19,000 bases of DNA from Promethearchaeia archaeon (GTDB lineage: Archaea; Asgardarchaeota; Lokiarchaeia; Sigyniarchaeales; SOKP01): contig JAHQWL010000082.1 in NCBI GenBank assembly GCA_029856155.1, positions 1 through 19,000 of the forward strand. Reading direction: 5' to 3'. Under the pieces are notes generated by a model. It saw nothing but the letters and a program-made list of their open reading frames with translations. It searched no databases and had not been told where the DNA came from. Shown in pieces: positions 2,292 to 18,998 of the stretch. The position numbers were made by a program, and so were the translations under genes. The first letter of the stretch is position 1. Every line of letters starts with the position of its first letter.

Positions 2292-3485
2292 ATGGATGAG
2301 GATGAATTCAGAAAGCAATTTATGAAAAAGTCGGTTTTTAGACAAGCGAGTTCTCTTGATTTAAGTTATGTACCAGAAAAATTATATTGTCGTGATGAAG
2401 CTTTAAAAACATTGATATTTAATTATAGGAGAATTATGGAGGAAAAAGAACAACTCTCTGTTAATTGCTTGATCTTAGGGAAAGGAGGAGTAGGAAAAAC
2501 ATGTACAGCGCGCTATTTTGGAAAAAATTTTAGAACTATAGCAATTGAAAATGATGTTAAATTATTTTTAGAATATTTTAATTGTATTAATTTTCGCTCT
2601 AAGAGTAAGATAATCAGAGAACTCCTCGCTAAATATCAGCATGGTAGCGGACGTGGTTTCTCGGACGACGAGGCTTTAAAATTAATTCTTTCGCAACTAA
2701 TTCGAGAAAAGGGTTATATGCTTTTAATTATTGATGAGATTCACCTTCTTAAACCAGATGAAGTACTTGCATTTTTGGACATTGCAGAAACATTTGGACA
2801 TCAAAATGCGAAATTGTCGCTATTGTTAATTTCCAGAAGTAAAGATTGGATGACAATTGAGAATGAGAGAATATTGAGTAGATTAAATGAAAAAATTCAA
2901 CTTAAACCTTATGATTTTGATGAATCAAAACAAATCTTGAAATATCGAAGTGAACTGGCGTTAAAAGAAAATGTAATCGACGAGGAACTTTTAATAATGG
3001 TTTCACAAATCGTAGTTGATCATAAAAATATGAGACATGGGATTGAAATTTTACGTAAAAGTGGATCTTATTGCGATAAAGAAGGACTTGATCGCATAAC
3101 TGCTGATATTATTAGAGAGGCGTCTAATGATGTTTATCCTACTTTTAGAAATGATATTGTAGATCAGTTAAAAGATCAAGAGCTCTTAGCCTTATATGGG
3201 ATTGTACGTTCATTAATTAATAACGACGAACCATTCACTTTAGTTGATGATGCATTTGAAGAATATAATGCTATATGTGAGAATTACTCTATTGAACCTC
3301 ATGTCAAAATGAGTTTTAGAAAATACGTACGTCAGCTTACTCAGCTAAAAATTATGGCTTCTAAAACAGTAAGAATCGAAGAGGCTACTCGTGGAAGACA
3401 TTTAGAGATAACTCTGTTAGATATCCCTACATTAAAATTAGCAGAATTGTTAGAAGATATTTTACAAAGGAAATTTAATTTTTAG
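2292..3485 (+). CDS. cdc6: Cdc6/Orc1 family replication initiator (AAA+ ATPase plus winged helix)
   Basis: N-terminal L...YVPEKLYCRD, Walker A GKGGVGKT, YFNC, Walker B LIIDEIH, Arg finger RILSRL, F.PY..E...IL..R-like box, sensor-2 NMRHGIEILR, and a C-terminal winged helix ending in RGR. Confidence 0.93.
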   Translation: MDEDEFRKQFMKKSVFRQASSLDLSYVPEKLYCRDEALKTLIFNYRRIMEEKEQLSVNCLILGKGGVGKTCTARYFGKNFRTIAIENDVKLFLEYFNCINFRSKSKIIRELLAKYQHGSGRGFSDDEALKLILSQLIREKGYMLLIIDEIHLLKPDEVLAFLDIAETFGHQNAKLSLLLISRSKDWMTIENERILSRLNEKIQLKPYDFDESKQILKYRSELALKENVIDEELLIMVSQIVVDHKNMRHGIEILRKSGSYCDKEGLDRITADIIREASNDVYPTFRNDIVDQLKDQELLALYGIVRSLINNDEPFTLVDDAFEEYNAICENYSIEPHVKMSFRKYVRQLTQLKIMASKTVRIEEATRGRHLEITLLDIPTLKLAELLEDILQRKFNF

Positions 3486-3581
3486 GTAATAGCTTAATGG
3501 CCTATAAAAATATGACTCTCTTTTTTCCTTAATTCTAAATAGAATTCTCTTATTTTGTGGAATTTCTTACTTATTTCTAAT

Positions 3582-3812
3582 TTAATAACTTTCTTTTTCA
3601 GATTTTGATTTACTATACCATTCAAGCCACTCTTTTCGTCGATTCTTTTTTTGTTGCATGTTATCATCCTCTGTAATATTTTCACTTCTTACTTTTTTCC
3701 AATATCCATCTAACTCATGTCTAGTTAATGAAAGTCCACATGATTGGCATACCATCTGTTTTATGGCTGAATGATATTTCATAAATCCTCCGCATTCGGG
3801 GCAGCGAGCCAT
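3582..3812 (-). CDS. Small zinc-ribbon protein of unknown function
   Basis: CPECGG...CQSCG Zn-ribbon followed by a charged helical tail with WLEWY. ATG preceded by GATGGT. Confidence 0.8.
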   Translation of the reverse strand: MARCPECGGFMKYHSAIKQMVCQSCGLSLTRHELDGYWKKVRSENITEDDNMQQKKNRRKEWLEWYSKSKSEKESY

Positions 3813-3969
3813 TAAAATACCATCTTATTCTAATTTATTATTTTCTGAGCTATTATTTTATTTATATATTATATTAATAGAATTAATTAGCGTTAAAATA
3901 TTTTTTGACTTGCTTATAAATTCTAATTATTTGCATGAATTAAATAGAACTTATTTAAAATAAAGGATA

Positions 3970-5193
3970 ATGAAATCAGACGTTTTTTATTTTACGGCTC
4001 GAACACACGTTCATGAGCAAAGTATGAGCAAATTTAAGGGTCCCTTAGCCTTGAGAAAAATTGGAATTGAGCAAAAGATTAAGAATGGTGATAAAATAGT
4101 AATTAAAACACATTTTGGCGCATTAGAAAACACAAGATACTTGCGTCCAGGCTATATACGATTCTTATGTGATTATGTTAAAGATCTAGGTGGGATTCCA
4201 TCAGTGGCAGAATCTTGTGGGTGGGGTATACCTGAAAGTGTTTCAGGGGTCCATACAGAATACTCTGGTCGATCAAGTGAAGCAGAATATTTAGAAACAG
4301 CTCTAAAGCATGGATTTACAAAAGAAACTATGGGGGCTCCAATTCTGATGTTAGATGGAAAAGTTGGAGCGGATATTGAAATTCAAAAAATTGATGGAAA
4401 GATATTTAATGAAGTTTTAGTGGCAGGACGTTTAAGAGAATTTGATTATATGATATTAGCATCGCATTTTAAAGGCCATGCTGACGGAGGTTTTGGAGGG
4501 TCAATAAAAAATTTGGGAATAGGGTGCGTTTCAAAGGGTGGAAAAGTTGAAGCCCATACAGGAAAAACTTTTGAGATTGATTTTGATAACTGTAATCCAG
4601 AGTGTAAAAGCTGTATCAATATATGCCCTACCAACGCATTATCTAAAGATAAAGACAATAAATTAGTTTTTAATGAAGAAAAATGTAAATTTTGTTACAT
4701 GTGTGCTTCGGTATGTAAAGATAAAGTTATTAATATCGGTAGTGTTCCTCGTGATGTTTTCGCTACACAGATGGTTGATAATGCCAAGGGAGTAGTTGAA
4801 TATTTTGGAAAGGATAAAATTTTTTATATTAATTATGCAATAGATATTACCTACCAGTGCGACTGTACAGGAGGCTCAGACATCCCATTTGTTCCAGATA
4901 TTGGAGTTTTAGCATCTTTAGATCCCGTTGCTTTGGATCAAGCAACTATAGATCTTATACATAAATCTTCGATTAGCCCTCATTCTGTTCTTTCTGATGT
5001 AGAGGGTATCCCAACCCTAGGCCCTCATGAATGGTTTTCTCATACTCCTCGGTTTGACCCTGAGAGCGGAGAAATGGATTTTAGTGGGAAAGAATCAAGG
5101 CACTGGGAATTACAATTAAAGTTAGCTGAAGAAATTGGCCTAGGAACAAGAAATTACAATTTAATTGAAGTGAAAATTGAAAAAAATAAATAA
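3970..5193 (+). CDS. DUF362 family Fe-S protein with inserted 2x[4Fe-4S] ferredoxin domain
   Basis: IKTHFG, SHFKGH, GGSIKNLGIGC, CDC and ASLDPVALDQA motifs. Ferredoxin motifs CNPECKSCINICP and CKFCYMCASVC. Confidence 0.88.
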   Translation: MKSDVFYFTARTHVHEQSMSKFKGPLALRKIGIEQKIKNGDKIVIKTHFGALENTRYLRPGYIRFLCDYVKDLGGIPSVAESCGWGIPESVSGVHTEYSGRSSEAEYLETALKHGFTKETMGAPILMLDGKVGADIEIQKIDGKIFNEVLVAGRLREFDYMILASHFKGHADGGFGGSIKNLGIGCVSKGGKVEAHTGKTFEIDFDNCNPECKSCINICPTNALSKDKDNKLVFNEEKCKFCYMCASVCKDKVINIGSVPRDVFATQMVDNAKGVVEYFGKDKIFYINYAIDITYQCDCTGGSDIPFVPDIGVLASLDPVALDQATIDLIHKSSISPHSVLSDVEGIPTLGPHEWFSHTPRFDPESGEMDFSGKESRHWELQLKLAEEIGLGTRNYNLIEVKIEKNK

Positions 5194-5206: not shown

Positions 5207-6547
5207 TTATAGTGAAACAGCTAAATTGTTAAAAACCATATAAGGAAAAAAAGTATTCTCAAAATATTCTCGTTCTTTAGAAATATATTGGCAATCTTTG
5301 ATCATTTTGAGCACATTTCCGCTAATATTCCCGAGTTTGATGGGATTTTCATATTCACCATTTTTGATATAGTACCCATTTCTTATTTCTGCTCCAAAAT
5401 CCCCTGTTAGTTTACTTGGATTCAACCAAGAAAATTGTTCAATATAATAACCTTCATTTATTTCTGATATAATATCATCTAAATTCATAGTTCCAGGTAG
5501 AATCTCCAAATTACTTATTCCATTATCAACAGCGCCCATCAAAGTTCTCATTCCGTTTCCAGTTGAGCTTTGATTAGCGAGAAGCGCAAATTTTTGATCA
5601 TAAAGTCTTTTCTGGAAAATTCCATCCTTAATTATTTCAGTTCTTTGATGTGGTGATCCTTCACTATCCCACTTATTAGTTTTTAAACCTCCTTCCAATA
5701 ACCCATTATCAATGAGAGAGAGATTGTTAGTAGCAACCTCTTCATCGGTTTCAAATCTAGAGAGATTTTGAAGATATGCACTCCCAGAAGCGTGTCTTTC
5801 TATTACGGAATTGAGGGCATCTTTTAATACTCGTGGCGAAAAAATCACAGTTGCATAATTATTCTGTAGTGGAACTTTAGCTTTTAAGGAATCTTGAGCT
5901 AATCTAACCCATTTTTCTACTCTTTTTGAAAAATCTAATTGATTTTTTTCTTTAATAAATAAATACGGCCAATATTCTGATAATTTCCCTTTTAATTGAG
6001 CCTTTAATGAGAATTCTATAAAAAAATAAGTCTTTAGAGTGCTAATATCAAGAGCATTACTATTCCTTAAAGAGATTTTATCGATATGAACCCGGAACCG
6101 TCCAAAAGTAGGGTCAACTTCTTTATATTGGTTTATCTCAGAAATTAATTCTTCTACTAAATCATTTTTAATATCAAGGGGAGCCTGAAATACTTTTTTA
6201 TCTAAGATTGATATATCTGGATAAGAAACCTCACCAGGAAAGTGAAATTTTGACCCCAAATTATTTTTTGCAATTAAAACGCATGTATTTATGCTTTTCT
6301 CAATTTCGTTTATATTAAGAGAATTTCCTTTAATAACTCCAATTCCCGTTTTGTCTTTTTTATGAAAGAGAATTCGCAAGATATATTTTAAATCATTCAG
6401 TTCTCTTTCATTATCAACCGTATCCTTCAATAAAATAGACTCATATGCTGTTCCTTCAACAAGGAAAATCTCATAATCTTTAACACCCTTAGATTTCATT
6501 AGGTTTTCTATTACATCTAAATTTTGTTTAGACATATTTAATTTCAC
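5207..6547 (-). CDS. pmbA: TldE/PmbA family protein (non-catalytic partner of TldD)
   Basis: WDSEGSP...IIKDG, STGNG, NLEILPG, G.FGAEI..GYYIKNGE...PIK..NISGN motifs; lacks HExxGH. Abuts tldD (GTGA overlap). The true start may be ATG at 6535, preceded by GGGGTGA. Confidence 0.9.
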   Translation of the reverse strand: MKLNMSKQNLDVIENLMKSKGVKDYEIFLVEGTAYESILLKDTVDNERELNDLKYILRILFHKKDKTGIGVIKGNSLNINEIEKSINTCVLIAKNNLGSKFHFPGEVSYPDISILDKKVFQAPLDIKNDLVEELISEINQYKEVDPTFGRFRVHIDKISLRNSNALDISTLKTYFFIEFSLKAQLKGKLSEYWPYLFIKEKNQLDFSKRVEKWVRLAQDSLKAKVPLQNNYATVIFSPRVLKDALNSVIERHASGSAYLQNLSRFETDEEVATNNLSLIDNGLLEGGLKTNKWDSEGSPHQRTEIIKDGIFQKRLYDQKFALLANQSSTGNGMRTLMGAVDNGISNLEILPGTMNLDDIISEINEGYYIEQFSWLNPSKLTGDFGAEIRNGYYIKNGEYENPIKLGNISGNVLKMIKDCQYISKEREYFENTFFPYMVFNNLAVSL

Positions 6548-7926
6548 CCCGGACTAATTAAAACTTCTTTACATCTAACATAGCTACCGCCATCACTAAC
6601 AGGAACATTATCAGCATTACCCTTTCCACATGTGCCTCCATGCAATTCTGTAGGTTCTTTACTTATTGCATCTATGTTCTGTAAGACCTCCAAAACAAGT
6701 CCACTTAGAGTTATTGCCCTTAATATTTGTGTTTTTTCGCCATTTTCTATTAGATAGCCTTTCTTAGATGTGACCTGTAGAGCCCCTCCTATGGGATCTT
6801 CCATGCCGAAATATGAGTGATTACACATTATCCCCTCTTTAATTTCTGCTATCATTTCTTCTAGATCATAGTCTGCGGGTTCAAAATATGTATTTGACAT
6901 CCTTGGATGAATAACGTGAGCATAACTTTCCCTTCTTCCATTTCCTTGTGGAGCCCCATTTAATACTGAGGCACTTCTTCGATCATAAATGAAATTTTTT
7001 AAAATACCATTTTCAACCAATATGTTTTTGCCTGCTTTTATACCCTCATCATCAAAGTAATAAGATCCTATTTGATTTTCAAGGTTTGGGGTATCACATA
7101 TTACACATATTTCTGAAGCAACTTTTTTATTCAATTTTTCTTTTAAATAACTCCTTCCTCTTAAAACTTGATCAGCTTCTAATCCATGACCAAAACTTTC
7201 ATGAGCAATAGTTCCAGCCATTCCTGGATCTACTATGACGGGAAATTTACCTGCTGGTGGTTTTTTAGCTTTTAACATTTCTAGAGAATTAGTTGCTATT
7301 TGTTCTAACTTACTATCAGACAATTCATCAAAAAGTTCAAATCCCGCTTCACCTTCAATTATAAAATGATCAAAATCAACTTTTATACCTTCTTTAACTA
7401 TCGGAAAAATAAAGAATCTTAATCTTGGTATCACTTGTCTTAATTGACTTCCCTCATTATTTACGAAAATACGCGTAATTTGGGTTTCCAAATATTTTAA
7501 TTGACACATTGCAATTCTCTTATCATAATTTTGAACAAAGTTGAAAATGTGTCTAATTTTTTTTAATTTTTCCTCAATAGGGACTTCTTGTGGATCGATT
7601 TTAGTTTTGAGTTCTTTATTTAATGTCCATCCTTTAAATTCAGCAATTTCTTCCCCTTTATTAACGACTTTAGGTAATTTTTCTTCAATAGTACTCAGAT
7701 TAGAAAAATCAGTAAGTGCAATTTCCTTCCAGGTGCCATCAAAGGTTCTTGCAACAACACCAGAAGTCTTTGAAATGACTGAAATATCCTCCGTAGAGGG
7801 ATCTATATTTATGTATAAAGCCGATAAAGAATCATACAAAATGTCAAAATATTGGTTATTACGATTAAAGCTGTTTGAAACCTCTTCAAAAGATGCAAAG
7901 ATTTGACTATAAGATTGATCAATCAT
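6544..7926 (-). CDS. tldD: TldD metalloprotease subunit
   Basis: HESFGHGLEAD metal-binding motif, FDDEG, GNGRRESY..PRMSNT, and C-terminal CGKG...VPVSDGG. Confidence 0.93.
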   Translation of the reverse strand: MIDQSYSQIFASFEEVSNSFNRNNQYFDILYDSLSALYINIDPSTEDISVISKTSGVVARTFDGTWKEIALTDFSNLSTIEEKLPKVVNKGEEIAEFKGWTLNKELKTKIDPQEVPIEEKLKKIRHIFNFVQNYDKRIAMCQLKYLETQITRIFVNNEGSQLRQVIPRLRFFIFPIVKEGIKVDFDHFIIEGEAGFELFDELSDSKLEQIATNSLEMLKAKKPPAGKFPVIVDPGMAGTIAHESFGHGLEADQVLRGRSYLKEKLNKKVASEICVICDTPNLENQIGSYYFDDEGIKAGKNILVENGILKNFIYDRRSASVLNGAPQGNGRRESYAHVIHPRMSNTYFEPADYDLEEMIAEIKEGIMCNHSYFGMEDPIGGALQVTSKKGYLIENGEKTQILRAITLSGLVLEVLQNIDAISKEPTELHGGTCGKGNADNVPVSDGGSYVRCKEVLISPG

Positions 7927-8005: not shown

Positions 8006-9454
8006 CTATTCTTCAATATCAAGAATCTTTTTAACTAGTTTTTTCTTATCTTCGAAATTAGCTTGTCGCGATATCATAATCCTTTGTGCTTGAGGGCTTC
8101 CCGCTCCATGCATCGATTCAGTTCGATAACTAACAGAAGCAACACCCATTGTTAAATTCTCAATAAATCGTAGTACTTTAAAGCGATCTTCAGCACATAT
8201 TCCCTCACATGTAGTTAAATATTTTTCAATTAACGGTCCTATCTCTTTTGAGTTAATATCTGCTTCAGAGGGCATAGTACAAATCAGTCCACCTGCTAAA
8301 TCTTCAGCTAGTCTTCCTATTTCGTAAGGAAACCGAGTGACATTTTGCTTGCATACATTAGCTAGTAACATATCCATTTCATAATTGCCCGCTTCTCTTT
8401 GGAAGCCTAAAGAACTACACGCTATGCCACAACTATATAAAGTCTCATTTAAATGTGTCATTTCTACAAGTTTATCTTTCACATGAGACGCATTCTGAGT
8501 TCCATTATATTCAGAAATTAGAGCTGTAGCCCCTATAAGTACATCTCCAACTCCAACTTTGCATCCTCCATAAGATTGTCGATGAAACCCAGCAAAACGA
8601 TTAACTAATTCTCCAGAGAATTCAATTTCACCCTTCATAAAGATATTCTCATTAGGAATAAAGACATTATCGAAAACAACAAAGATTTCTTGTCCACCAT
8701 ATTTAAAATTTCCAATGTCTAATTTCTCTTCTTCCAATTTTCTTGTATCACATGATTGTCTTCCATATATTAGGGTTATTCCGTCTGCATTTGTATCAAT
8801 TCCAAAACTAACTGCATATTCCTCTTCACCGGGTCTTAATGAGAGAGTGGGCATAACGATTGCCCTATGAGAGTTAAGAAATCCTGTTTGATGAACTTTT
8901 GCTCCTCGAACTATGACACCCTCATCATTCTCGTCTATTATATGTAAAAAAGCATCGGGATCTGGTTGATCTTTAGGTCTTTTACTTCTGTCTCCCTTTG
9001 TATCGGTCATTGCTCCATCTACCATTAGATCTTGGGTTTGAACGTCGATCCAATATTTCTTGAAACGTTCATGATAATTAGTATTATTTTTTTTATCCAT
9101 TTCATAAGTTACACTGTATAACGCATTCGCAGTGTCAAAACCTACACATCTTTGAAAACAACACGCAGTTTTTTGGCCAAGTAATCTCTGCATTTTTACT
9201 TTTTTTATTAAATCATCAACAGATTGATGAATGTGAGTAAACCTATTTATAGTTTCGCCGGTTAAATGAGATTTGGCAGTCATTAGATCTTTATACTCAT
9301 CCAATTGGGCTAATTCATAGATCTTCATAACAGTATTTATTGATGGTTTGATGATAGGGTGGTTCCAAAATTCATTTACTTTTTCACCAAACATATATAA
9401 ATTAATTGGCCTTTTAATAGAGGTTAGGTATTCTTCTGGTGTTTTTAACGGCAT
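8006..9454 (-). CDS. abfD: 4-hydroxybutyryl-CoA dehydratase / vinylacetyl-CoA isomerase
   Basis: CCFQRCVG and HRQSYGGCK ([4Fe-4S] ligands 3 Cys plus His), GAMTDTKGDRS, RGAKVHQTG, and ESMHGAGSPQAQR. 482 aa. Confidence 0.93.
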   Translation of the reverse strand: MPLKTPEEYLTSIKRPINLYMFGEKVNEFWNHPIIKPSINTVMKIYELAQLDEYKDLMTAKSHLTGETINRFTHIHQSVDDLIKKVKMQRLLGQKTACCFQRCVGFDTANALYSVTYEMDKKNNTNYHERFKKYWIDVQTQDLMVDGAMTDTKGDRSKRPKDQPDPDAFLHIIDENDEGVIVRGAKVHQTGFLNSHRAIVMPTLSLRPGEEEYAVSFGIDTNADGITLIYGRQSCDTRKLEEEKLDIGNFKYGGQEIFVVFDNVFIPNENIFMKGEIEFSGELVNRFAGFHRQSYGGCKVGVGDVLIGATALISEYNGTQNASHVKDKLVEMTHLNETLYSCGIACSSLGFQREAGNYEMDMLLANVCKQNVTRFPYEIGRLAEDLAGGLICTMPSEADINSKEIGPLIEKYLTTCEGICAEDRFKVLRFIENLTMGVASVSYRTESMHGAGSPQAQRIMISRQANFEDKKKLVKKILDIEE

Positions 9455-9594: not shown

Positions 9595-10515
9595 TTAAGT
9601 TTCAAAACTTTCCTCTTGATCTGAGGAGGAGTGCATATGTACTTTTGAATTTTTTTCCAAATATGTCATTCGTTTTTCTAAAATGGTCATAGTTTCTATA
9701 ATATTATTCAATACTTTGTTAGTTTCTCTAATTTCATATTGGAGATCACCAAGTTGATTAAGGATAAATGATTTAACCTTAGATTCCTTAACGGGATTTA
9801 TCAACCAATTAATAATATTCTGAATAAATTTTCGATTATCTAATGAATTAATACCTATTCTTGAATTGGAAGTGAATATATCAATATCTCCAATTGCTAT
9901 GATTTTTCCTTGCCCAAATTCTGTATATGCTGCAATAGTATACTGTTTTTCCTCTAGTTTAGACCACTCCTCAGATGCATTATTATAAACTTCTGACCAT
10001 ACAGATCGTTCATTTGATTGCAATAGAGGTTTTACTTCTTTACTTAAAAATAAGGAACATGCGCCTCCAATTATTATTTCTCTTAAATTTTTTGTTATTT
10101 GATGCTTTATAAAATTTTGAATATGTAGTATGCTAGAACAATTTTTATTATTATCATTTATCTCTTTAATTATATTTTTCTCAAAAGAAACGCCAAATTT
10201 TCCAGCAATATCATTTAGATTGGTTTTTTGAAGGTGATCTGCTCCATATTCACTCAATAAGAGTAAACCCCCTCCACTTCTTACATGATCAACAACGAGT
10301 TTTATTTCTAAACTTGAAAAGAAATCATCAATTGGATTACCAATAATTAAAAGATCAATATTTTCTAATGTTTTTTTTGTTATATGTCCATTCTCATTCC
10401 TTTTAATCTTAACATCTAATCGTTTTAGAAGATTTGAGAATTCTTTAAATTCTTGATCTTCGATATTTAACATTTCATTGTGAGTTAAATCAAAAAGTAT
10501 GGTTTTTTTTAGCAT
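9595..10515 (-). CDS. GIFT (GldG/IFT52-like, DUF4350-like) domain protein with C-terminal coiled coil
   Basis: ILFDLTHNE start, L..IDLLIIGNP...F...E...V..GGGLLLLSE.G, TNLN.IA..FG, GKIIAIGD.DIF and DNRKF..NIINWL, followed by heptad-patterned LGDLQYEIRETNKVLNNIIETMTILEKRMTYLE. No signal peptide or TM helix. Confidence 0.75.
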   Translation of the reverse strand: MLKKTILFDLTHNEMLNIEDQEFKEFSNLLKRLDVKIKRNENGHITKKTLENIDLLIIGNPIDDFFSSLEIKLVVDHVRSGGGLLLLSEYGADHLQKTNLNDIAGKFGVSFEKNIIKEINDNNKNCSSILHIQNFIKHQITKNLREIIIGGACSLFLSKEVKPLLQSNERSVWSEVYNNASEEWSKLEEKQYTIAAYTEFGQGKIIAIGDIDIFTSNSRIGINSLDNRKFIQNIINWLINPVKESKVKSFILNQLGDLQYEIRETNKVLNNIIETMTILEKRMTYLEKNSKVHMHSSSDQEESFET

Positions 10516-13484: not shown

Positions 13485-14441
13485 ATGGCTTTATCAGTTA
13501 TACTTGTCATATTTTTAGTTATAGCGATAATAATCGCGTTTGGAATTGGTGGAAATGATGAAACATTCGCTGGAATCTACGGTTCAAGAATTCTAAATAT
13601 GAAGCAAATTTTGATTTTAGCTACAATTTTCGCAATAACAGGAGCCCTTATATTAGGTGAAGCTGTAAGTAAGACTGTAGGTAAAGGCATTTTGGCTGAT
13701 CTTAATAATGCAATTGTCATAACAATTTTAGTATCTACTGCTATTTGGTTAATATTATCATCTGCTTTGGGATTACCGATATCAACAACTCATGCAACAA
13801 TCGGAGCTGTTATAGGTCTTGGAATAGCTCTCAATGCTAGTCTTGACTGGTTGAAGATTCTTGAATTGAGCATTTGGTGGGTTTTATCTCCGATTATTGG
13901 GTATATTGTCTCATTTTTTGTTTTCAAACTTATGCGTAAATATAAAGTTAAACATTTAAACGGATTTCAGAGTTTAGAAAAAAACGAAAAAACTTTCACC
14001 TATATTGTTTTAATAGTCATCTGTATCACCGCATTCTCAAGATCAGGAAATGATTGCTCAAATGCAGTAGGAATTGTTGTTGGTATTGGAGATATACAAA
14101 TAAATCTTCTTCTTTTAATAACTGGATTTAGTTTAGCTGGGGGATTAATAGTTTTAGGTCGAGGAGTTATTAAGAGCGTTGGACGAATTACAGAGCTTTA
14201 TCCAAGTACCGCTTTTGCTGCTCAAATTCCTACAGCAGCGATACTTTTTCTTGGTACTGCGCTAGGAATTCCTTTATCGGGATCTCATATGTTAGTGGCT
14301 TCTCTAGTGGGGTTATCTAAAGCAAGTCAGACTCCTACTAAAAAAGGTATGTGGAAAATAGTGCTAATCTGGTTTTTAACATTTCCAATGGCAGCACTCC
14401 TCTCAATAGTGCTATACTTTCCAATCAGTGCTACCATTTAA
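13485..14441 (+). CDS. pit: PiT (PHO4) family inorganic phosphate transporter
   Basis: Multiple TM helices; GGND, V.KTVGKGI, GLPISTTHATIGAVIG, GNDCSNAVG, V.KSVG.IT, GIPLSGSH and W.LT.P motifs. Confidence 0.93.
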   Translation: MALSVILVIFLVIAIIIAFGIGGNDETFAGIYGSRILNMKQILILATIFAITGALILGEAVSKTVGKGILADLNNAIVITILVSTAIWLILSSALGLPISTTHATIGAVIGLGIALNASLDWLKILELSIWWVLSPIIGYIVSFFVFKLMRKYKVKHLNGFQSLEKNEKTFTYIVLIVICITAFSRSGNDCSNAVGIVVGIGDIQINLLLLITGFSLAGGLIVLGRGVIKSVGRITELYPSTAFAAQIPTAAILFLGTALGIPLSGSHMLVASLVGLSKASQTPTKKGMWKIVLIWFLTFPMAALLSIVLYFPISATI

Positions 14442-14512
14442 CTTTATTTTTTTAAATTTTAGATTCTGCTTTAGATTTTAGAAAAAAAAGCTTCCCTGAT
14501 AATTACTAATAG

Positions 14513-17500
14513 TCATCTTAAGATTTCTCTATGAAGTTTTTCAATGAAATTATCAAAATCATCTTTTGTATATTTTACATTTAACAAATGGCCCAAAATT
14601 GGTGGAACATGTCCTTCATCTTCAAAAACAGGAATCATTTTAATTAAGCCTTTTTTTCTACGCTGAAATGCTGCCTGCCACTCATCACTTACTGCTGCAG
14701 AATTAAGTGATCTTTCACTACAAAAAAGAATAAAAACATCACTTTCTTGTAGAGTTCTATCCATAAATTCAACAATATTTTCTTTACTATCCTTTTCCCA
14801 GTATAAAACTTTATCAATATCAGGATATTTTTCCAACTTCTGTACAATTTTATTTATTTGAAAATACTCTGAATCTAAAGTAGAATAACTTATAAATATA
14901 TTATGCTCCTTCTCTTCTACTTTTTCTACTACGGGAGCAATCTGCTTTTCTTCTTCTAAGATTTTTGGTACTAAAGGAGTAATTATTGGTTCTCTCTTAG
15001 CTTCTTCATAAATTCCCGCTTCAATATTCTTGCATTGATCAACTTTTTTCGTTGCTTCATTAAATATATCGAAGAACTCATATTCATCAGCTGTATCTTG
15101 TATTTTACCTAAATTTTTATATGCTAGTTTAATATTCCTTTCCTTAATGAGATAATCAACAAAATCTAATTTTTCTTCTAGTTTTCTTCTTGTTTTTTGT
15201 CTTTTCTTCTCACTAATTTCTTTTTTCTTCAATCCGGATGTAGAAGCTCTCTTCTTTACTATTATAACAGCAATAGTAACCCCAACAACAACTAATCCAA
15301 TTATCAGAACAATAATTAAAATATCAAAAGGAAATCTACTTGTTAAACCAGGTATATTGTTATTAGAACCTATATTGTTTTCACTATCAATTTCTACAAT
15401 TGCTTGATCATTATATAATATAGTATTCCAATCAATGGAATTAAAATTAGATTGATTAAGATATATTCCTATTCCATTGTTATTTATTGTATTATTCGTT
15501 ATATCATTGGAATGACTATTAAATAAATAAATACCATAAAGTTCATTAAAGTTAATTGTCTCTTTATTATTGATAATATCGATATTACTACTATCAATCA
15601 ATACAATTCCGGCTCTCTCATTGTTATTAATTGAATTCTCAGATATGACGATAGATTGACATGAAATTAAGACAATTCCATTTGCGTTATTAAATGAACA
15701 ATTATTATAGAACAATTTTCCATTTAAAGTAGCAATTAGTTTAATTCCTCCATCATAACGGTTGGATCCCGAATTATAAAAACTACAATTCTGAATCTCG
15801 AAATACACACTAGAGCTTCTGATTGTAAGACAACTAACTTGATTCAGACCATTAATTTTAATGTTGTTAATGATATAAGGATCAACTAGGGTTCCAGAAC
15901 CTGTACACCAAGGTAAATTTACAACTTCTAACCACGTATAATCACCAATACCAGTATTATCAATAATTAAGGGGTTTAATATCCAATACCCACTTTCACT
16001 ATCATAAATTAGAACAGTTACACTAATGCAATTCGAAAGCATAGAACCAAAACTATTATTTGCCACAACGATAAAATAATAATTTCCAGTAGATAAATCC
16101 ATAATTGGGTATAATATATTTGTTGTTTCGATCTCAAGGGCAATGAGACTGCTGTTTATATGGGTAATATATCTAGAATACAGATAAATTGAATAATTAT
16201 CCGCTCCTGCGGACTCTGTCCAAGTAAGATTAAAAACTCCATCAGTATCAAAAGGACTATCAGCATCGGAAGATAAATTAAATTGCTTTGGAGATACTTG
16301 AACCTCAATCCAAATGTTATTTGACAAAGTTTCTCCGGTTTCATTATATGCTACCGCTACGAAATAGTATACACCTCTTGATAACCCTATGATCAGAAAG
16401 GGAGAAGTTGCTGTTTGATCTGCAATTATAGTAAGACTGGTGTTTATCATTGTAATTAACCTATCAAAAGAGTAAATGGAATAATTGTCTGCTCCCTCTG
16501 AAACCGTCCAAGTTAAGTTAAACGCACCATTGGTATCAGGATCCCCAGCATCACTAGTTAATGTAAAATTCCCCGGCTTAGGACGTTCTACAGTTATTTC
16601 AACATTATTCGAAAGTTTTTGACGTGTTCCATTATATGCTACTACAGCACAATAATACTTTCCCGTTTTCAATCCTGAGATTTGAAATGGGGATTGTGCA
16701 TTTTTATCAGCTAATAACTGAAGGCTTTTATTTATATATGTAATAGGTTTATCATAAATATATACAGAGTAACCTACAGCACCAGTAGAGTTTGACCAAG
16801 TTAAATTGAATGTCCCATCTTTATCTGGCATGTTAGCATCACTATATAATGTAAAATCCCCAGGTAAAGCCTGTCCGCCTACAAGATTATTAATACCCCA
16901 GTATGGTATTGAATATAGACCTGTAGCAAGGGTATCTGGATAGATCGAATTAAATGAAGGAAGTACTATTTTATCACCATCTAATTGCCATTGACTAAAT
17001 AAAGTAAAAGCATAAGGATAGCCTTCTACTAAATCGTGAGAATTAGTAAAAGCTATATTCCCGGAAACACCCTCAAAAGGATTGCTTGTAGTTATATTTT
17101 CTAAAGCCGCAATATTAGGATCCGGGTTAAAAGTTTGAGTATTAGAAATTACTTCTGCTATAAGTCTAACTGCGTCATAAGATCCAGCTCCAGTATAATA
17201 TGGTTCAATACCAAATGTTGCGATATAAGAATCCCAAAAAGGTATTGTACGGGTGGTCTTATTAGTTCTATGGATACTCTGCATTAAGATCTCGTATTGA
17301 CATTTTCCTTCAGTATCATCCCAGTATGAATCTAATTGGGCTTCTACATTAATACCAGCTAAAAGACATCCTGGTTTTACGGCACTATAAGATTTTACCA
17401 TAGTTATCGCATCGCTACTTGAGATTATTGATATCGTTAATTGGGCACCCGCAGAATCAATATCACTCCAATAAGATGCAAAATCATAACTAGAGGCACC

Positions 17501-18301
17501 AATAGGAAATGCAATTTCCTCTACAACGGTTAACCCATAAATTGGTAGAATGGATTGTAGTGCAGCGCTTAATGGTAGTGACCATGTTAAATCTTCTCTA
17601 ATGATAGCCACTGAATTTATGGTCCCCCCATACATCACCCCTAAAGCAGAAGCAATAGTTAATAGATAAGTTATTAATTCTTTAGCAAGCGAGGTGGAAT
17701 TAATTGGCATTACTCTAAAGAAATATTTATATCTATTATAATTATCAAGAACATTTTGGCAGAAAGCATCAGATGATGCAGCAGTACAAATAAATGGGAT
17801 TTTAGCATCCATTATAACTTCTTGATATGCTACTAGAGCCTCAGTTCTAAATCCTCCTAAAATGAAATGGGGGTCATTATAGGTTATCATTCTATTGGCA
17901 GCAGCCACTCCCTTAGATAAATCCAAAGTTGCGTTAGCTTCATCTGTATCCTCGGAAGTTAATGCTATATAATAAATTGTACCATTAATATCAATACCAC
18001 CAGCTTGGTTAATTTCTCTAGCAGCCAATAACGCCCCTTTCCAAGCGTGATCGCCAGTATAGTCACTCAAATCATCTAATAATCCAATCTTAATTGATTG
18101 GTTTAAGGGAACTGGGAATGTTATTCCTGGAATTGTATAATTGCCTACAATTAGATCAGATTTTTTAGGATCAATATTTTGAGTTTCATTTCTTTCAATA
18201 TTATTAAAATTAAAGTAAGTTAGTCCGATAAAAGTTTGAAGAAATAACAAGGTTAATATCATAAATGTGATATTTTTTCTATTTTTCATTATTTTCGCCA
18301 T
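14513..18301 (-). CDS. Single-pass membrane protein: LivJ-type (Venus flytrap) solute-binding domain + 3 FN3-like repeats + NosD/CASH beta-helix + TM + C-terminal TIR domain
   Basis: Basic N-region and hydrophobic helix (aa ~6-30). Type I solute-binding motifs IKIGLL, GALLAAREINQAGGI, ILGGFRTE, YFFRV.P, YDAV, FEGVSGNIAF (aa ~68-470). Three ~95-aa W/Y repeats (aa 480-763). GSGT..DPYII followed by N/GI.L beta-helix repeats (aa ~800-985). TM aa 994-1015 followed by KKR. TIR aa 1133-1262 (IFISYS, SDVFILFCS..SL.S..V.DEW..A, MIPV, P..L). Confidence 0.9.
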   Translation of the reverse strand: MAKIMKNRKNITFMILTLLFLQTFIGLTYFNFNNIERNETQNIDPKKSDLIVGNYTIPGITFPVPLNQSIKIGLLDDLSDYTGDHAWKGALLAAREINQAGGIDINGTIYYIALTSEDTDEANATLDLSKGVAAANRMITYNDPHFILGGFRTEALVAYQEVIMDAKIPFICTAASSDAFCQNVLDNYNRYKYFFRVMPINSTSLAKELITYLLTIASALGVMYGGTINSVAIIREDLTWSLPLSAALQSILPIYGLTVVEEIAFPIGASSYDFASYWSDIDSAGAQLTISIISSSDAITMVKSYSAVKPGCLLAGINVEAQLDSYWDDTEGKCQYEILMQSIHRTNKTTRTIPFWDSYIATFGIEPYYTGAGSYDAVRLIAEVISNTQTFNPDPNIAALENITTSNPFEGVSGNIAFTNSHDLVEGYPYAFTLFSQWQLDGDKIVLPSFNSIYPDTLATGLYSIPYWGINNLVGGQALPGDFTLYSDANMPDKDGTFNLTWSNSTGAVGYSVYIYDKPITYINKSLQLLADKNAQSPFQISGLKTGKYYCAVVAYNGTRQKLSNNVEITVERPKPGNFTLTSDAGDPDTNGAFNLTWTVSEGADNYSIYSFDRLITMINTSLTIIADQTATSPFLIIGLSRGVYYFVAVAYNETGETLSNNIWIEVQVSPKQFNLSSDADSPFDTDGVFNLTWTESAGADNYSIYLYSRYITHINSSLIALEIETTNILYPIMDLSTGNYYFIVVANNSFGSMLSNCISVTVLIYDSESGYWILNPLIIDNTGIGDYTWLEVVNLPWCTGSGTLVDPYIINNIKINGLNQVSCLTIRSSSVYFEIQNCSFYNSGSNRYDGGIKLIATLNGKLFYNNCSFNNANGIVLISCQSIVISENSINNNERAGIVLIDSSNIDIINNKETINFNELYGIYLFNSHSNDITNNTINNNGIGIYLNQSNFNSIDWNTILYNDQAIVEIDSENNIGSNNNIPGLTSRFPFDILIIVLIIGLVVVGVTIAVIIVKKRASTSGLKKKEISEKKRQKTRRKLEEKLDFVDYLIKERNIKLAYKNLGKIQDTADEYEFFDIFNEATKKVDQCKNIEAGIYEEAKREPIITPLVPKILEEEKQIAPVVEKVEEKEHNIFISYSTLDSEYFQINKIVQKLEKYPDIDKVLYWEKDSKENIVEFMDRTLQESDVFILFCSERSLNSAAVSDEWQAAFQRRKKGLIKMIPVFEDEGHVPPILGHLLNVKYTKDDFDNFIEKLHREILR
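16013..16864 (-). repeat. Three diverged tandem FN3-like domain repeats (period 285-288 nt)
   Basis: Repeats start at P480, P576 and P671 and share P..F.L.SDA..PD.DG.FNLTW..S.GA..YS.Y.....IT.IN.SL...........I.GL..G.YY..VVA.N.....LSN...I.V. Confidence 0.9.
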
Positions 18302-18599
18302 CTAAAGGATATTAAATACTCAATATATCTAATAACTAATAAATAGACAATGATTTCTTTTATTATTTACTAAAAAGTCTAGGCTATCTTTTGATAAAAA
18401 TGTAAGTAATTGACTATCATTACTATATTTATCTTACTAAGTATAATCTAATTCAATAATAAAGCCATTTATTCCTATTTATCAACAAGTATTCCCATAG
18501 TAATTCGGAACTACCATGAGTCTTTGACTATTGAAACAATAAATGAAACCACTAGCTATGATAATCAACTTCTAAATAAGTGTATAAATCCAATTTATT

Positions 18600-18998
18600 T
18601 TATTTTGAATATTTTAAAACGATAAGATTAGCTATTATAATTAGGCTTCCGCCAATTATAGTAAATATGGATATTGATTTCAGAATAATTATATTTAAGA
18701 TTGTAGCTGTAACAGGCTCAATATATGATAGAATTATAATATTCCCGCCTTTATCATTCTTAGTTCCTATATTATATAATAAAAAAGCTAATGCAGTAGG
18801 GAATAATCATAAAATAACAGCAATAATTAAATCAGAAAATGTGAATATCATTAAATCACACATAGTTATTGGTAAAAACATGAATACAATGAATAAAGTA
18901 GGCCACCATGCTAAAAATGTATCGAAATCACCTTGTGCTTTAAATTGGTGTTCCGAATTATTACGTATATTGTAGATCTTCTTCTTGTAAAATATTAA
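18600..18998 (-). pseudogene. 3' part of a DMT/EamA-family transporter with an in-frame TGA at 18807-18809 (partial, begins beyond the window)
   Basis: Not in the ORF track. Manual translation: LIFYKKKIY...FLAWWPTLFIVFMFLPIT...LIIAVIL*LFPTALAFLLYNIGTKNDKGGNIIILSYIEPVTATILNIIILKSISIFTIIGGSLIIIANLIVLKYSK*. PTALAF.LY, SYIEPV.A.I and IIGG.LII are EamA hallmarks. Confidence 0.7.

Follow-up and report, generated by a model that had tools for sequence, protein, structure and literature searches.

The stretch analysed here (the window, 19,000 nucleotides) is an entire contig, C81, of a metagenome-assembled genome (MAG) from an Asgard archaeon of the Lokiarchaeia (4.10 Mb in 104 contigs, 30% G+C, 5.7% contamination). 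Its minus strand carries a gene for a 1262-residue protein in which a large ectodomain, headed by a Venus-flytrap domain of the periplasmic-binding-protein (PBP) type, is joined through one transmembrane (TM) helix to a TIR (Toll/interleukin-1 receptor) domain that is predicted to lie in the cytoplasm. The protein belongs to a family that is fast-changing and strain-variable, and that has a Toll/IL-1-like layout without specific relatedness to the animal receptors; this archaeal family is apparently undescribed. We propose that the protein is an outside-in receptor with an oligomerisation-dependent, NAD+-cleaving TIR output and that it is part of a rapidly diversifying accessory repertoire, a composite proposal in which we place about as much belief as doubt. 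The receptor gene and its parts are arranged in the window as follows.

14513..18301, minus strand: receptor gene, ATG start, 1262 codons plus TGA, a single unbroken open reading frame (ORF)
18212..18271, minus strand: N-terminal signal peptide or signal anchor, residues 11-30, behind an N-end of charge +4 (hydropathy)
16892..18121, minus strand: Venus-flytrap/type-I periplasmic-binding head, residues 61-470 (Pfam, AlphaFold, Foldseek)
16004..16879, minus strand: three tandem FN3-like beta-sandwich repeats of about 96 residues, residues 475-766 (self-alignment, model)
15347..15991, minus strand: membrane-proximal right-handed beta-helix, residues 771-985 (Pfam NosD and Beta_helix, NCBIfam para_beta_helix, model)
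15254..15322, minus strand: TM helix, residues 994-1016, with KKR and a +7 stretch after it (hydropathy, model)
14906..15253, minus strand: cytoplasmic linker, made of a conserved three-helix unit (about 1026-1094) and then a low-confidence, poorly conserved part (about 1098-1128) (alignment of 30 tails, model)
14516..14905, minus strand: TIR domain, residues 1133-1262 (Pfam TIR_2, Foldseek, dN/dS 0.08)
14699..14701, minus strand: codon of Ser1201, aligned to Cat1 S68
14681..14683, minus strand: GAG codon of Glu1207, the predicted NADase catalytic residue, aligned to Cat1 E74

A preliminary description, made from the sequence alone, had read the gene as one uninterrupted ORF of 1262 residues with the order signal or anchor, binding domain, three FN3 repeats, beta-helix, TM helix and TIR, and the ORF itself, Pfam, hydropathy and the structural models all confirm this order. 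In Pfam, Peripla_BP_6 matches residues 69-421 (E 9e-26), ANF_receptor matches residues 91-201 with 26.9 bits, just above its cut-off of 25.4, and NosD and Beta_helix match residues 810-981 (E 2e-12 and 2e-9). The three repeats (residues 475-572, 573-668 and 669-766) can be aligned with one another; Pfam fn3 gives faint matches, and in orthologues only, and we consider FN3-like a fair label for the repeats. The C-terminal domain is matched by TIR_2 (PF13676) at residues 1135-1256 with E 5e-16 and 59.6 bits against a cut-off of 28, covering positions 1-121 of the 122 in the profile. The eukaryote-type TIR model PF01582 stays under its cut-off there (14.4 against 21.3 bits), as does the SEFIR model (19.2 against 23 bits), while ThsB_TIR scores 21.5 bits against a cut-off of 21.2, far beneath TIR_2.

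The predicted folds agree with these assignments. The tail was modelled by AlphaFold with an alignment of 30 homologous tails, and in the model the TM helix is followed by three helices predicted with confidence as one unit (about 1026-1094), then by a stretch of low confidence and finally by a beta/alpha domain, in which the TIR blocks have pLDDT of about 70-94. When the beta/alpha domain was compared with the PDB by Foldseek, all top matches at E <= 1e-3 were TIR or SEFIR domains; the TIR matches included SPARTA TIR-APAZ, Hydra TRR-2 (TMt 0.79), MyD88, SARM1, AbTir, TLR2, TLR10 and MAL filaments. The C-terminus is thus predicted to fold as a TIR domain, as had been proposed. The nearest shape clusters of the domain in the ESM Atlas are archaeal and bacterial (ThsB-like and TIR_2), and a feature search of the same resource with linker residues 1017-1132 returned nothing usable. 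The ectodomain model (AlphaFold, 962 residues, alignment of 48 rows) has a mean pLDDT of 90.7; in it, an alpha/beta domain with two lobes is followed by three modules that are all-beta and by a beta-helix, with pLDDT above 90 in the head and 86-93 in the FN3-like modules. The head is matched by LivJ/LivK/UrtA-type binding proteins at TMt 0.77-0.84 and also by the GABA-B flytrap; together with the Peripla_BP_6 match, this bears out the earlier view of a LivJ-type flytrap.

The preliminary description had also placed the binding domain and the TIR on opposite sides of the membrane and had noted a TM helix followed by a positive-inside KKR. We locate a single strong helix at residues 994-1016 (nucleotides 15254-15322; Kyte-Doolittle 3.4), the net charge being 0 ahead of it and +7 over the 20 residues that follow. 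The protein has 27 N-X-S/T sequons, of which 26 fall between the two hydrophobic segments and none in the tail; shuffled ectodomains contain 15.3 +/- 3.3 sequons on average, which gives P ~0.002 for the observed count. The sequon distribution and the charge pattern agree with each other and fit an outward, N-glycosylated ectodomain and a cytoplasmic TIR, so that the type-I topology stands as a prediction from sequence.

Because the source is a MAG of 104 contigs with some contamination, and because the FN3-like repeats break short-read unitigs near nucleotides 16425-16522, an assembly chimera or a mis-called ORF has to be considered. Against it, an identical 1262-residue protein is present on a contig of another assembly; in independent assemblies, full-length orthologues of 55-67% identity keep the domain order, and two of these occupy the same syntenic locus; and the ORF has no frameshifts or stops. 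Moreover, three separate studies (marine sediment 2016, salt marsh 2019, sediment 2019) supplied Logan contigs that cross the domain junctions at >=99% identity, bridging the TIR-TM-beta-helix junction (14300-15703, 15076-16425 and 14650-15280) and the FN3-PBP junction (16721-17735, 16572-17134 and 16723-17021); parts of the gene that no Logan contig covers in single runs are not evidence of absence. The chimera reading is thus effectively refuted and its probability is negligible. Inside the FN3-like repeats, at 16396-16607, short-read unitigs of several runs break or branch, and in one run two loose ends at 16479 and 16530 lead into other sequence; these most likely represent paralogous repeats or co-existing alleles.

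The TIR domain carries the residues expected of an enzyme. A search of the PDB with the single TIR sequence gave marginal matches (Cat1 at E 0.85), among which one to PheRS was rejected as spurious, and in a profile search the prokaryotic NADase Cat1 was the only solved relative detectable by sequence. HMMER alignments put S1201 and E1207 of the receptor on S68 and E74 of Cat1, which line its active site and of which the second is essential, since E74A abolishes Cat1 function (PMC12162218). Both positions are invariant in the 30 aligned tails, and of 177 aligned family members, 173 have the catalytic Glu and the others Q, V or D. The ratio of nonsynonymous (dN) to synonymous (dS) divergence of the TIR against the closest orthologue is 0.08. 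This near-invariance and the low ratio argue for an enzyme rather than a pure scaffold, and the alignments point to a TIR that would be catalytically competent in cleaving NAD+.

The tail is the constant part of a large family. The search with the whole protein found about 100 relatives, and the named ones are nearly all from Promethearchaeota, Lokiarchaeia included, or from other Asgard MAGs, which supports the Asgard host suggested earlier; a whole-protein search of genome contigs returned no related loci, from a set that possibly excludes the genome of the window. When the modules of the query were mapped onto the relatives, the TM-linker-TIR tail was found behind differing ectodomains, among them a PBP followed by FN3-like repeats, one to about five in number, and a beta-helix; a PBP with FN3 that lacks the beta-helix; beta-helices in chains; SBP_bac_5 joined to beta-helices; and propellers. 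The three-helix linker is kept across these types, and the PBP-FN3 head also occurs with a C-terminal anchor only, without a TIR. With a tail profile, 1533 clusters (50% identity) were retrieved at E < 1e-3, of which 208 reach E < 1e-30. A TM helix lies upstream of the TIR in 70 of the 144 top representatives, and in 52 the part outside exceeds 150 residues. Among 42 of these ectodomains, NosD/Beta_helix is the commonest module (33 of 42), and others carry SBP_bac_5, PKD, SBBP, TSP3, FG-GAP or Ig. The same TIR clade is found on soluble LRR, PCI, Band_7, TPR and WD40 proteins as well, again exclusively in Asgard archaea wherever the source is named.

The tail was detected in 59 genomes among the 301 that were sampled from the phylum, namely in 47 of 68 of the window's own family, 4 of 7 of the sister family and a handful elsewhere, and within the window's own genus in 10 of 21. 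The genome of the window has five family members: the C81 receptor, a frameshifted giant on C82, one on C61 and two adjacent ones on C79. The giant (C82:62352-67522, minus strand) is a multi-beta-helix receptor with stops between linker and TIR; C61:17996-18580 (minus strand) is the tail of a 1039-residue receptor; and C79:7665-9700 (minus strand) holds the two adjacent TIR genes. A family representative of 799 residues (P0192), the length of the larger C79 ORF, has Gln at the position of the catalytic Glu. As to earlier accounts, we found no description of an ectodomain-TM-TIR family in Asgard archaea or Lokiarchaea in a literature search whose reach left out most subscription journals, nor any paper in the searched literature that pairs the word stem Lokiarchae with a TIR domain; in an Asgard defence survey, TIR appears solely within the names of known systems.

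The locus itself is variable. In four genomes the receptor gene lies between PHO4 and EamA/DAP-dehydrogenase, and it is cleanly missing from the same block in two congeners, where a search of the receptor-less syntenic loci for remnants of the gene found none. These two genomes are 95% and 99% complete, and the whole tail family is missing from them too. In comparison with the closest genome, the flanking genes are 85-97% identical and the receptor 67%; with a second genome, the values are 73-91% and 56%; and a third genome has a 1073-residue allele with a single FN3 repeat. By the Nei-Gojobori method, the flanks differ from those of the closest genome by dN 0.015-0.06 and dS 0.15-0.6, the ectodomain by dN 0.275 and dS 0.84 (ratio 0.33), and the TIR by dN 0.045 and dS 0.58. 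The ectodomain thus changes about ten times faster than the flanks, and the TIR about as slowly as the flanks. The raised dS of the ectodomain hints at older or exchanged alleles, a value that needs care since dS is near saturation. The trees of heads and TIRs of 18 PBP-headed receptors disagree with strong support: when nine receptors of one TIR clade were forced to be monophyletic in the head alignment, the cost was 155 log-likelihood units (approximately unbiased (AU) test, p = 2e-7). This conflict means that heads and tails have recombined even within the PBP-headed subfamily. The preliminary description had seen no defence island around the gene, with housekeeping genes on its flanks, and so it is; from this it had drawn the idea of resident signalling, which our results do not support, as the gene is a presence/absence polymorphism in a block that is itself conserved, its ectodomain diverges fast, and heads and tails have recombined.

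Within its own genome, the receptor's binding domain has two paralogues of 43-44% identity, one of which (C26, 479 residues) heads a Liv-type operon of the LivHMGF kind with two BPD_transp_2 permeases and two ABC ATPases, while the other (C50, 748 residues) is a PBP-FN3 surface protein adjoining a beta-helix protein. At this identity, the head is a recent relative of a genuine transport binding protein; beside the receptor, no ABC permease or ATPase gene was found within the 19-kb contig. This relationship fits the sensing of an amino-acid-like solute, and fits also a look-alike of an exposed surface protein that is targeted by something else. Directly upstream of the Liv-type operon lies an ORF of 3288 residues (C26:187298-197164, minus strand).

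A candidate downstream partner comes from the relatives. The genome has one RelA_SpoT-TPR-SLOG (LSDAT_prok) gene of 867 codons (C92:82817-85420, minus strand), 68 nucleotides from the contig end. Used as a query, it has matches in 15 of the 301 genomes, and comparison of coordinates puts it next to, or within a few kb of, a TIR-family gene in at least 7 of the 15. Two orthologues are at L013:7613-10183 and L014:7967-10483. Pfam confirmed the linkage at two loci: in one of them a protein with multiple TM segments, linker and TIR is encoded directly upstream, and in the other a 1689-residue beta-helix-TM-TIR receptor gene is convergent with the SLOG gene. Within the genus, 8 genomes have both TIR and SLOG, 3 TIR only, 2 SLOG only and 9 neither (Fisher p 0.03, for genomes that are not independent). 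In Thoeris, a SLOG domain reads the TIR product. By analogy, the linkage suggests a route from a TIR product through SLOG to a RelA/SpoT-type output. The expected neighbour of the C92 SLOG gene, a multi-TM TIR protein of about 833 residues, is absent from the assembly and probably lies in an assembly gap.

We propose the following mechanism. The ectodomain would be glycosylated and face outward, with its LivJ-type flytrap head carried on a stalk of FN3-like repeats and beta-helix; a single helix would span the membrane, and the three-helix linker would hold, on the cytoplasmic side, a TIR competent for catalysis. The tails would be drawn together by what happens at the head, which would either close on a small solute or be engaged by a larger particle, for example a virus or another cell. 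The active sites of TIR domains form only between neighbouring TIRs; thus, clustering would switch on NAD+ cleavage. The outcome would be a loss of NAD+ or a signal derived from ADP-ribose, and the latter may be read by the SLOG domain of the RelA/SpoT-TPR-SLOG protein present in this genome and its relatives. An accessory locus, a fast head on a conserved tail, swapped heads and tails, and paralogues of which some are broken argue together for an immune or self/non-self type of accessory repertoire rather than a housekeeping nutrient sensor. Tentatively, the proposal may be extended to a previously unknown archaeal signalling or immune pathway running from outside to inside, in which receptors with swappable heads act through the membrane TIR and the SLOG domain of a RelA/SpoT-like enzyme to cause an alarmone-type growth arrest; we consider this full chain rather unlikely. 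If this is true, the closest archaeal relatives of eukaryotes would possess a prokaryotic counterpart of Toll-like signalling that senses at the cell surface.

In this proposal, the architecture, the topology signals, the folds, the conserved catalytic residues, the variability and the link of paralogues to the SLOG gene are what the analysis shows; the ligand, the clustering, the NADase activity and the downstream coupling are what we infer. Several results weigh against it. PADLOC defence-system models gave no meaningful match, Thoeris included (bSEFIR at E = 0.011), and the neighbours of the receptor are housekeeping genes. With an overall ectodomain dN/dS of 0.33, positive selection is not demonstrated, and the fast change could reflect the looser constraint that is typical of surface proteins. 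Plain solute sensing would account equally well for a head so closely paralogous to a transport binding protein. Finally, no conserved partner was found at the receptor's own locus on C81, where the SLOG gene is unlinked, and in the neighbouring genus g4 only 3 of 28 genomes have a SLOG gene by this query, most of the TIR-bearing genomes there being without it.

These points bear on what the protein might be instead. It could be a physiological sensor of an amino-acid-like nutrient, with the TIR making a second messenger that adjusts uptake, metabolism or syntrophy, and with no role in conflict. The kinship of the head with the binding protein of the Liv-type ABC operon and its LivJ/LivK/UrtA-like fold would be expected of such a sensor, as would the conserved synteny of the housekeeping neighbours and purifying selection on all domains (dN/dS 0.08-0.36). 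A nutrient sensor of this kind sits poorly with the loss of the gene and its entire tail family from nearly complete congeners, with a head that diverges so much faster than its flanks and recombines with its tail, with the many unrelated heads found on the same tail, and with paralogues in the genome that are frameshifted or have Gln at the catalytic position; we give it a modest chance. It is improbable that the protein is a membrane-tethered binding protein or adhesin whose TIR is a non-enzymatic scaffold, organising surface proteins or recruiting other TIR proteins. The TIRs of animal TLRs and MyD88 are indeed non-enzymatic modules for oligomerisation and scaffolding, and MyD88, TLR2 and MAL filaments are among the Foldseek matches; several further TIR proteins of the genome, some of which have Gln in place of the Glu, could serve as partners, and the stalk of beta-helix and FN3 is adhesin-like. 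However, a pure scaffold would need neither the Glu nor the Ser of the NADase site, which are near-invariant across the family, and the nearest relatives in sequence and shape are the prokaryotic enzyme-type TIR_2/ThsB-like domains and Cat1.

The direction of the signal may also be turned around, so that the TIR would be the sensor, for a cue from inside the cell, and the ectodomain would act as effector, for example as a glycan-acting beta-helix or as a binding protein for regulated transport. Beta-helices of the NosD/pectate-lyase-like kind are often carbohydrate-active, and the beta-helix is the most constant module of the ectodomains; however, a catalytic motif was not identified in it, we know of no precedent for a TIR as an input domain, and a design with the sensor outside and the output inside predicts what is seen, outer heads that vary on an inner tail that stays constant. 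We regard this inside-out device as very improbable, and return to the outside-in receptor in the comparison below.

The outside-in receptor resembles several known systems in part. Like animal Toll, Toll-like (TLR) and IL-1 receptors (IL-1R), it is laid out in type-I fashion, with a recognition domain outside the cell, a single TM helix and the TIR in the cytoplasm; the fold of the TIR is alike (Hydra TRR-2, TLR2 and TLR10 are among the matches), and both families are repertoires of many paralogues with variable ectodomains. In contrast, the animal ectodomains are LRR or Ig, whereas this one is PBP_6 with FN3-like repeats and a beta-helix; its TIR is of the prokaryotic TIR_2 type, with PF01582 below cut-off and no specific affinity in sequence to the animal domains, and it keeps the NADase Glu, which indicates an enzymatic rather than an adaptor-scaffold output. 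The IL-17 receptors are set apart by their SEFIR domain, as the receptor stays below the SEFIR cut-off. A type-I PBP flytrap head is shared with natriuretic-peptide receptor A (NPR-A) and class C G-protein-coupled receptors (GPCRs), as the ANF_receptor and GABA-B matches indicate. In NPR-A, a single TM helix connects the flytrap with a catalytic domain that has to oligomerise in order to work. By analogy, the logic of the present receptor would parallel NPR-A even more closely than the Toll/IL-1 receptors: a flytrap, one TM helix and an oligomer-dependent catalytic domain. The difference lies in the output, which is a guanylate cyclase or a seven-TM bundle in those receptors and a TIR here, and in the additional stalk of FN3-like repeats and beta-helix.

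Among prokaryotic proteins, ThsB, Cat1, SPARTA TIR-APAZ and AbTir share the TIR_2-type domain, and Cat1 also the active-site Ser and Glu; closest in shape are SPARTA and the ThsB-like and TIR_2 clusters. These proteins, however, are soluble and respond to intracellular cues, whereas this protein has a 960-residue ectodomain and a TM helix. The link of family members to a SLOG protein recalls ThsB with ThsA-SLOG in Thoeris; however, no SLOG/Macro effector adjoins the receptor gene, whose neighbours are PHO4/PhoU and EamA, and ThsA is absent. The Liv-type membrane-anchored binding proteins of the same genomes ('Loki-CTERM') have a homologous head and FN3-like repeats (42-55% identity) but not the beta-helix-TM-linker-TIR part, and the receptor in turn lacks an adjacent ABC permease or ATPase. 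The defence system Rst_2TM_1TM_TIR (PMC11291487) is also prokaryotic and also combines membrane-spanning parts with a TIR; going by its name, it consists of several components, short TM proteins and a TIR without a large ectodomain, and PADLOC gave no match of this system to the receptor.

For the origin of eukaryotic receptors, the comparison favours convergence. The preliminary description had seen in the gene a candidate precursor or analogue of eukaryotic TIR receptors. The parallel in layout holds, and the precursor idea is weakly founded, since PF01582 and SEFIR stay below cut-off, Cat1 is the only solved relative found by sequence and the clade is concentrated in one family. With a TIR closest to prokaryotic TIR_2/ThsB-like domains and Cat1, and with a lineage-restricted clade, direct ancestry of the eukaryotic receptors is unlikely and convergence is the economical explanation; we likewise consider it unlikely that eukaryotic ectodomain-TM-TIR receptors descend from such an Asgard repertoire. 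The earlier interpretation is thus supported in part, namely on the layout, the topology, the TIR fold, the host and the absence of a defence island, and is not supported on resident signalling.

To our knowledge, the characterised prokaryotic TIR proteins are soluble and sense intracellular events, and ectodomain-TM-TIR receptors are regarded as an animal invention. A large Asgard family, with 208 clusters at the stricter threshold and many ectodomains among them, indicates that the same receptor logic arose in archaea, in a version that combines an enzyme-type TIR with interchangeable extracellular heads. If functional, the family would offer a testable case of TIR signalling from surface to cytoplasm in prokaryotes, a view on how Asgard archaea perceive solutes, viruses and partner cells, and a point of comparison for the layouts of eukaryotic innate-immune receptors, most likely by convergence. 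A flytrap head with a transport paralogue in the same genome provides a tractable route to the ligand.

The rest of the window holds genes for a thioredoxin-reductase-like protein, a Xer recombinase, Orc1/Cdc6, a DUF362 protein, two TldD/PmbA proteins, an HpaB-like protein and a GIFT-domain protein, and further PurA, a DUF2284 protein and a PhoU-like protein with a PHO4 phosphate carrier; this block is syntenic in relatives. At its far end, 18603-18998 (minus strand) is the 3' part of the EamA/DMT transporter gene, cut by the contig end and 58% identical to a 307-residue orthologue of a congener; it has one in-frame stop where the orthologue has Gly and is possibly a pseudogene or a sequencing error. 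The plus-strand ORF at 18580-18975 ('orf131') was rejected as a gene, being an antisense shadow of the EamA gene. Near the other end, the Xer-type tyrosine recombinase (1233-2156) and Orc1/Cdc6 (2292-3485) are followed by an AT-rich gap of 485 nucleotides (3486-3969), which could be a replication origin; a search for repeats beside Orc1/Cdc6 (3400-4050) found weak short repeats only, among them an 18-nucleotide direct repeat at 3564 and 3686. In two relatives, the trio Xer-Cdc6-DUF362 is kept in synteny.

On the minus strand, the TldD/PmbA genes form a tandem pair with a 4-nucleotide overlap (5207-7926) and adjoin the gene of the HpaB-family protein (8006-9454), a label that is not specific for function, as Pfam HpaB also spans 4-hydroxybutyryl-CoA dehydratases. 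Also on the minus strand, 9595-10515 encodes a 306-residue protein with an IFT52 GIFT domain/ABC_transp_aux match (E 6e-11), which is 58-93% identical in the syntenic block of five relatives; as an Asgard GIFT-domain protein, it may interest students of the origins of intraflagellar transport.

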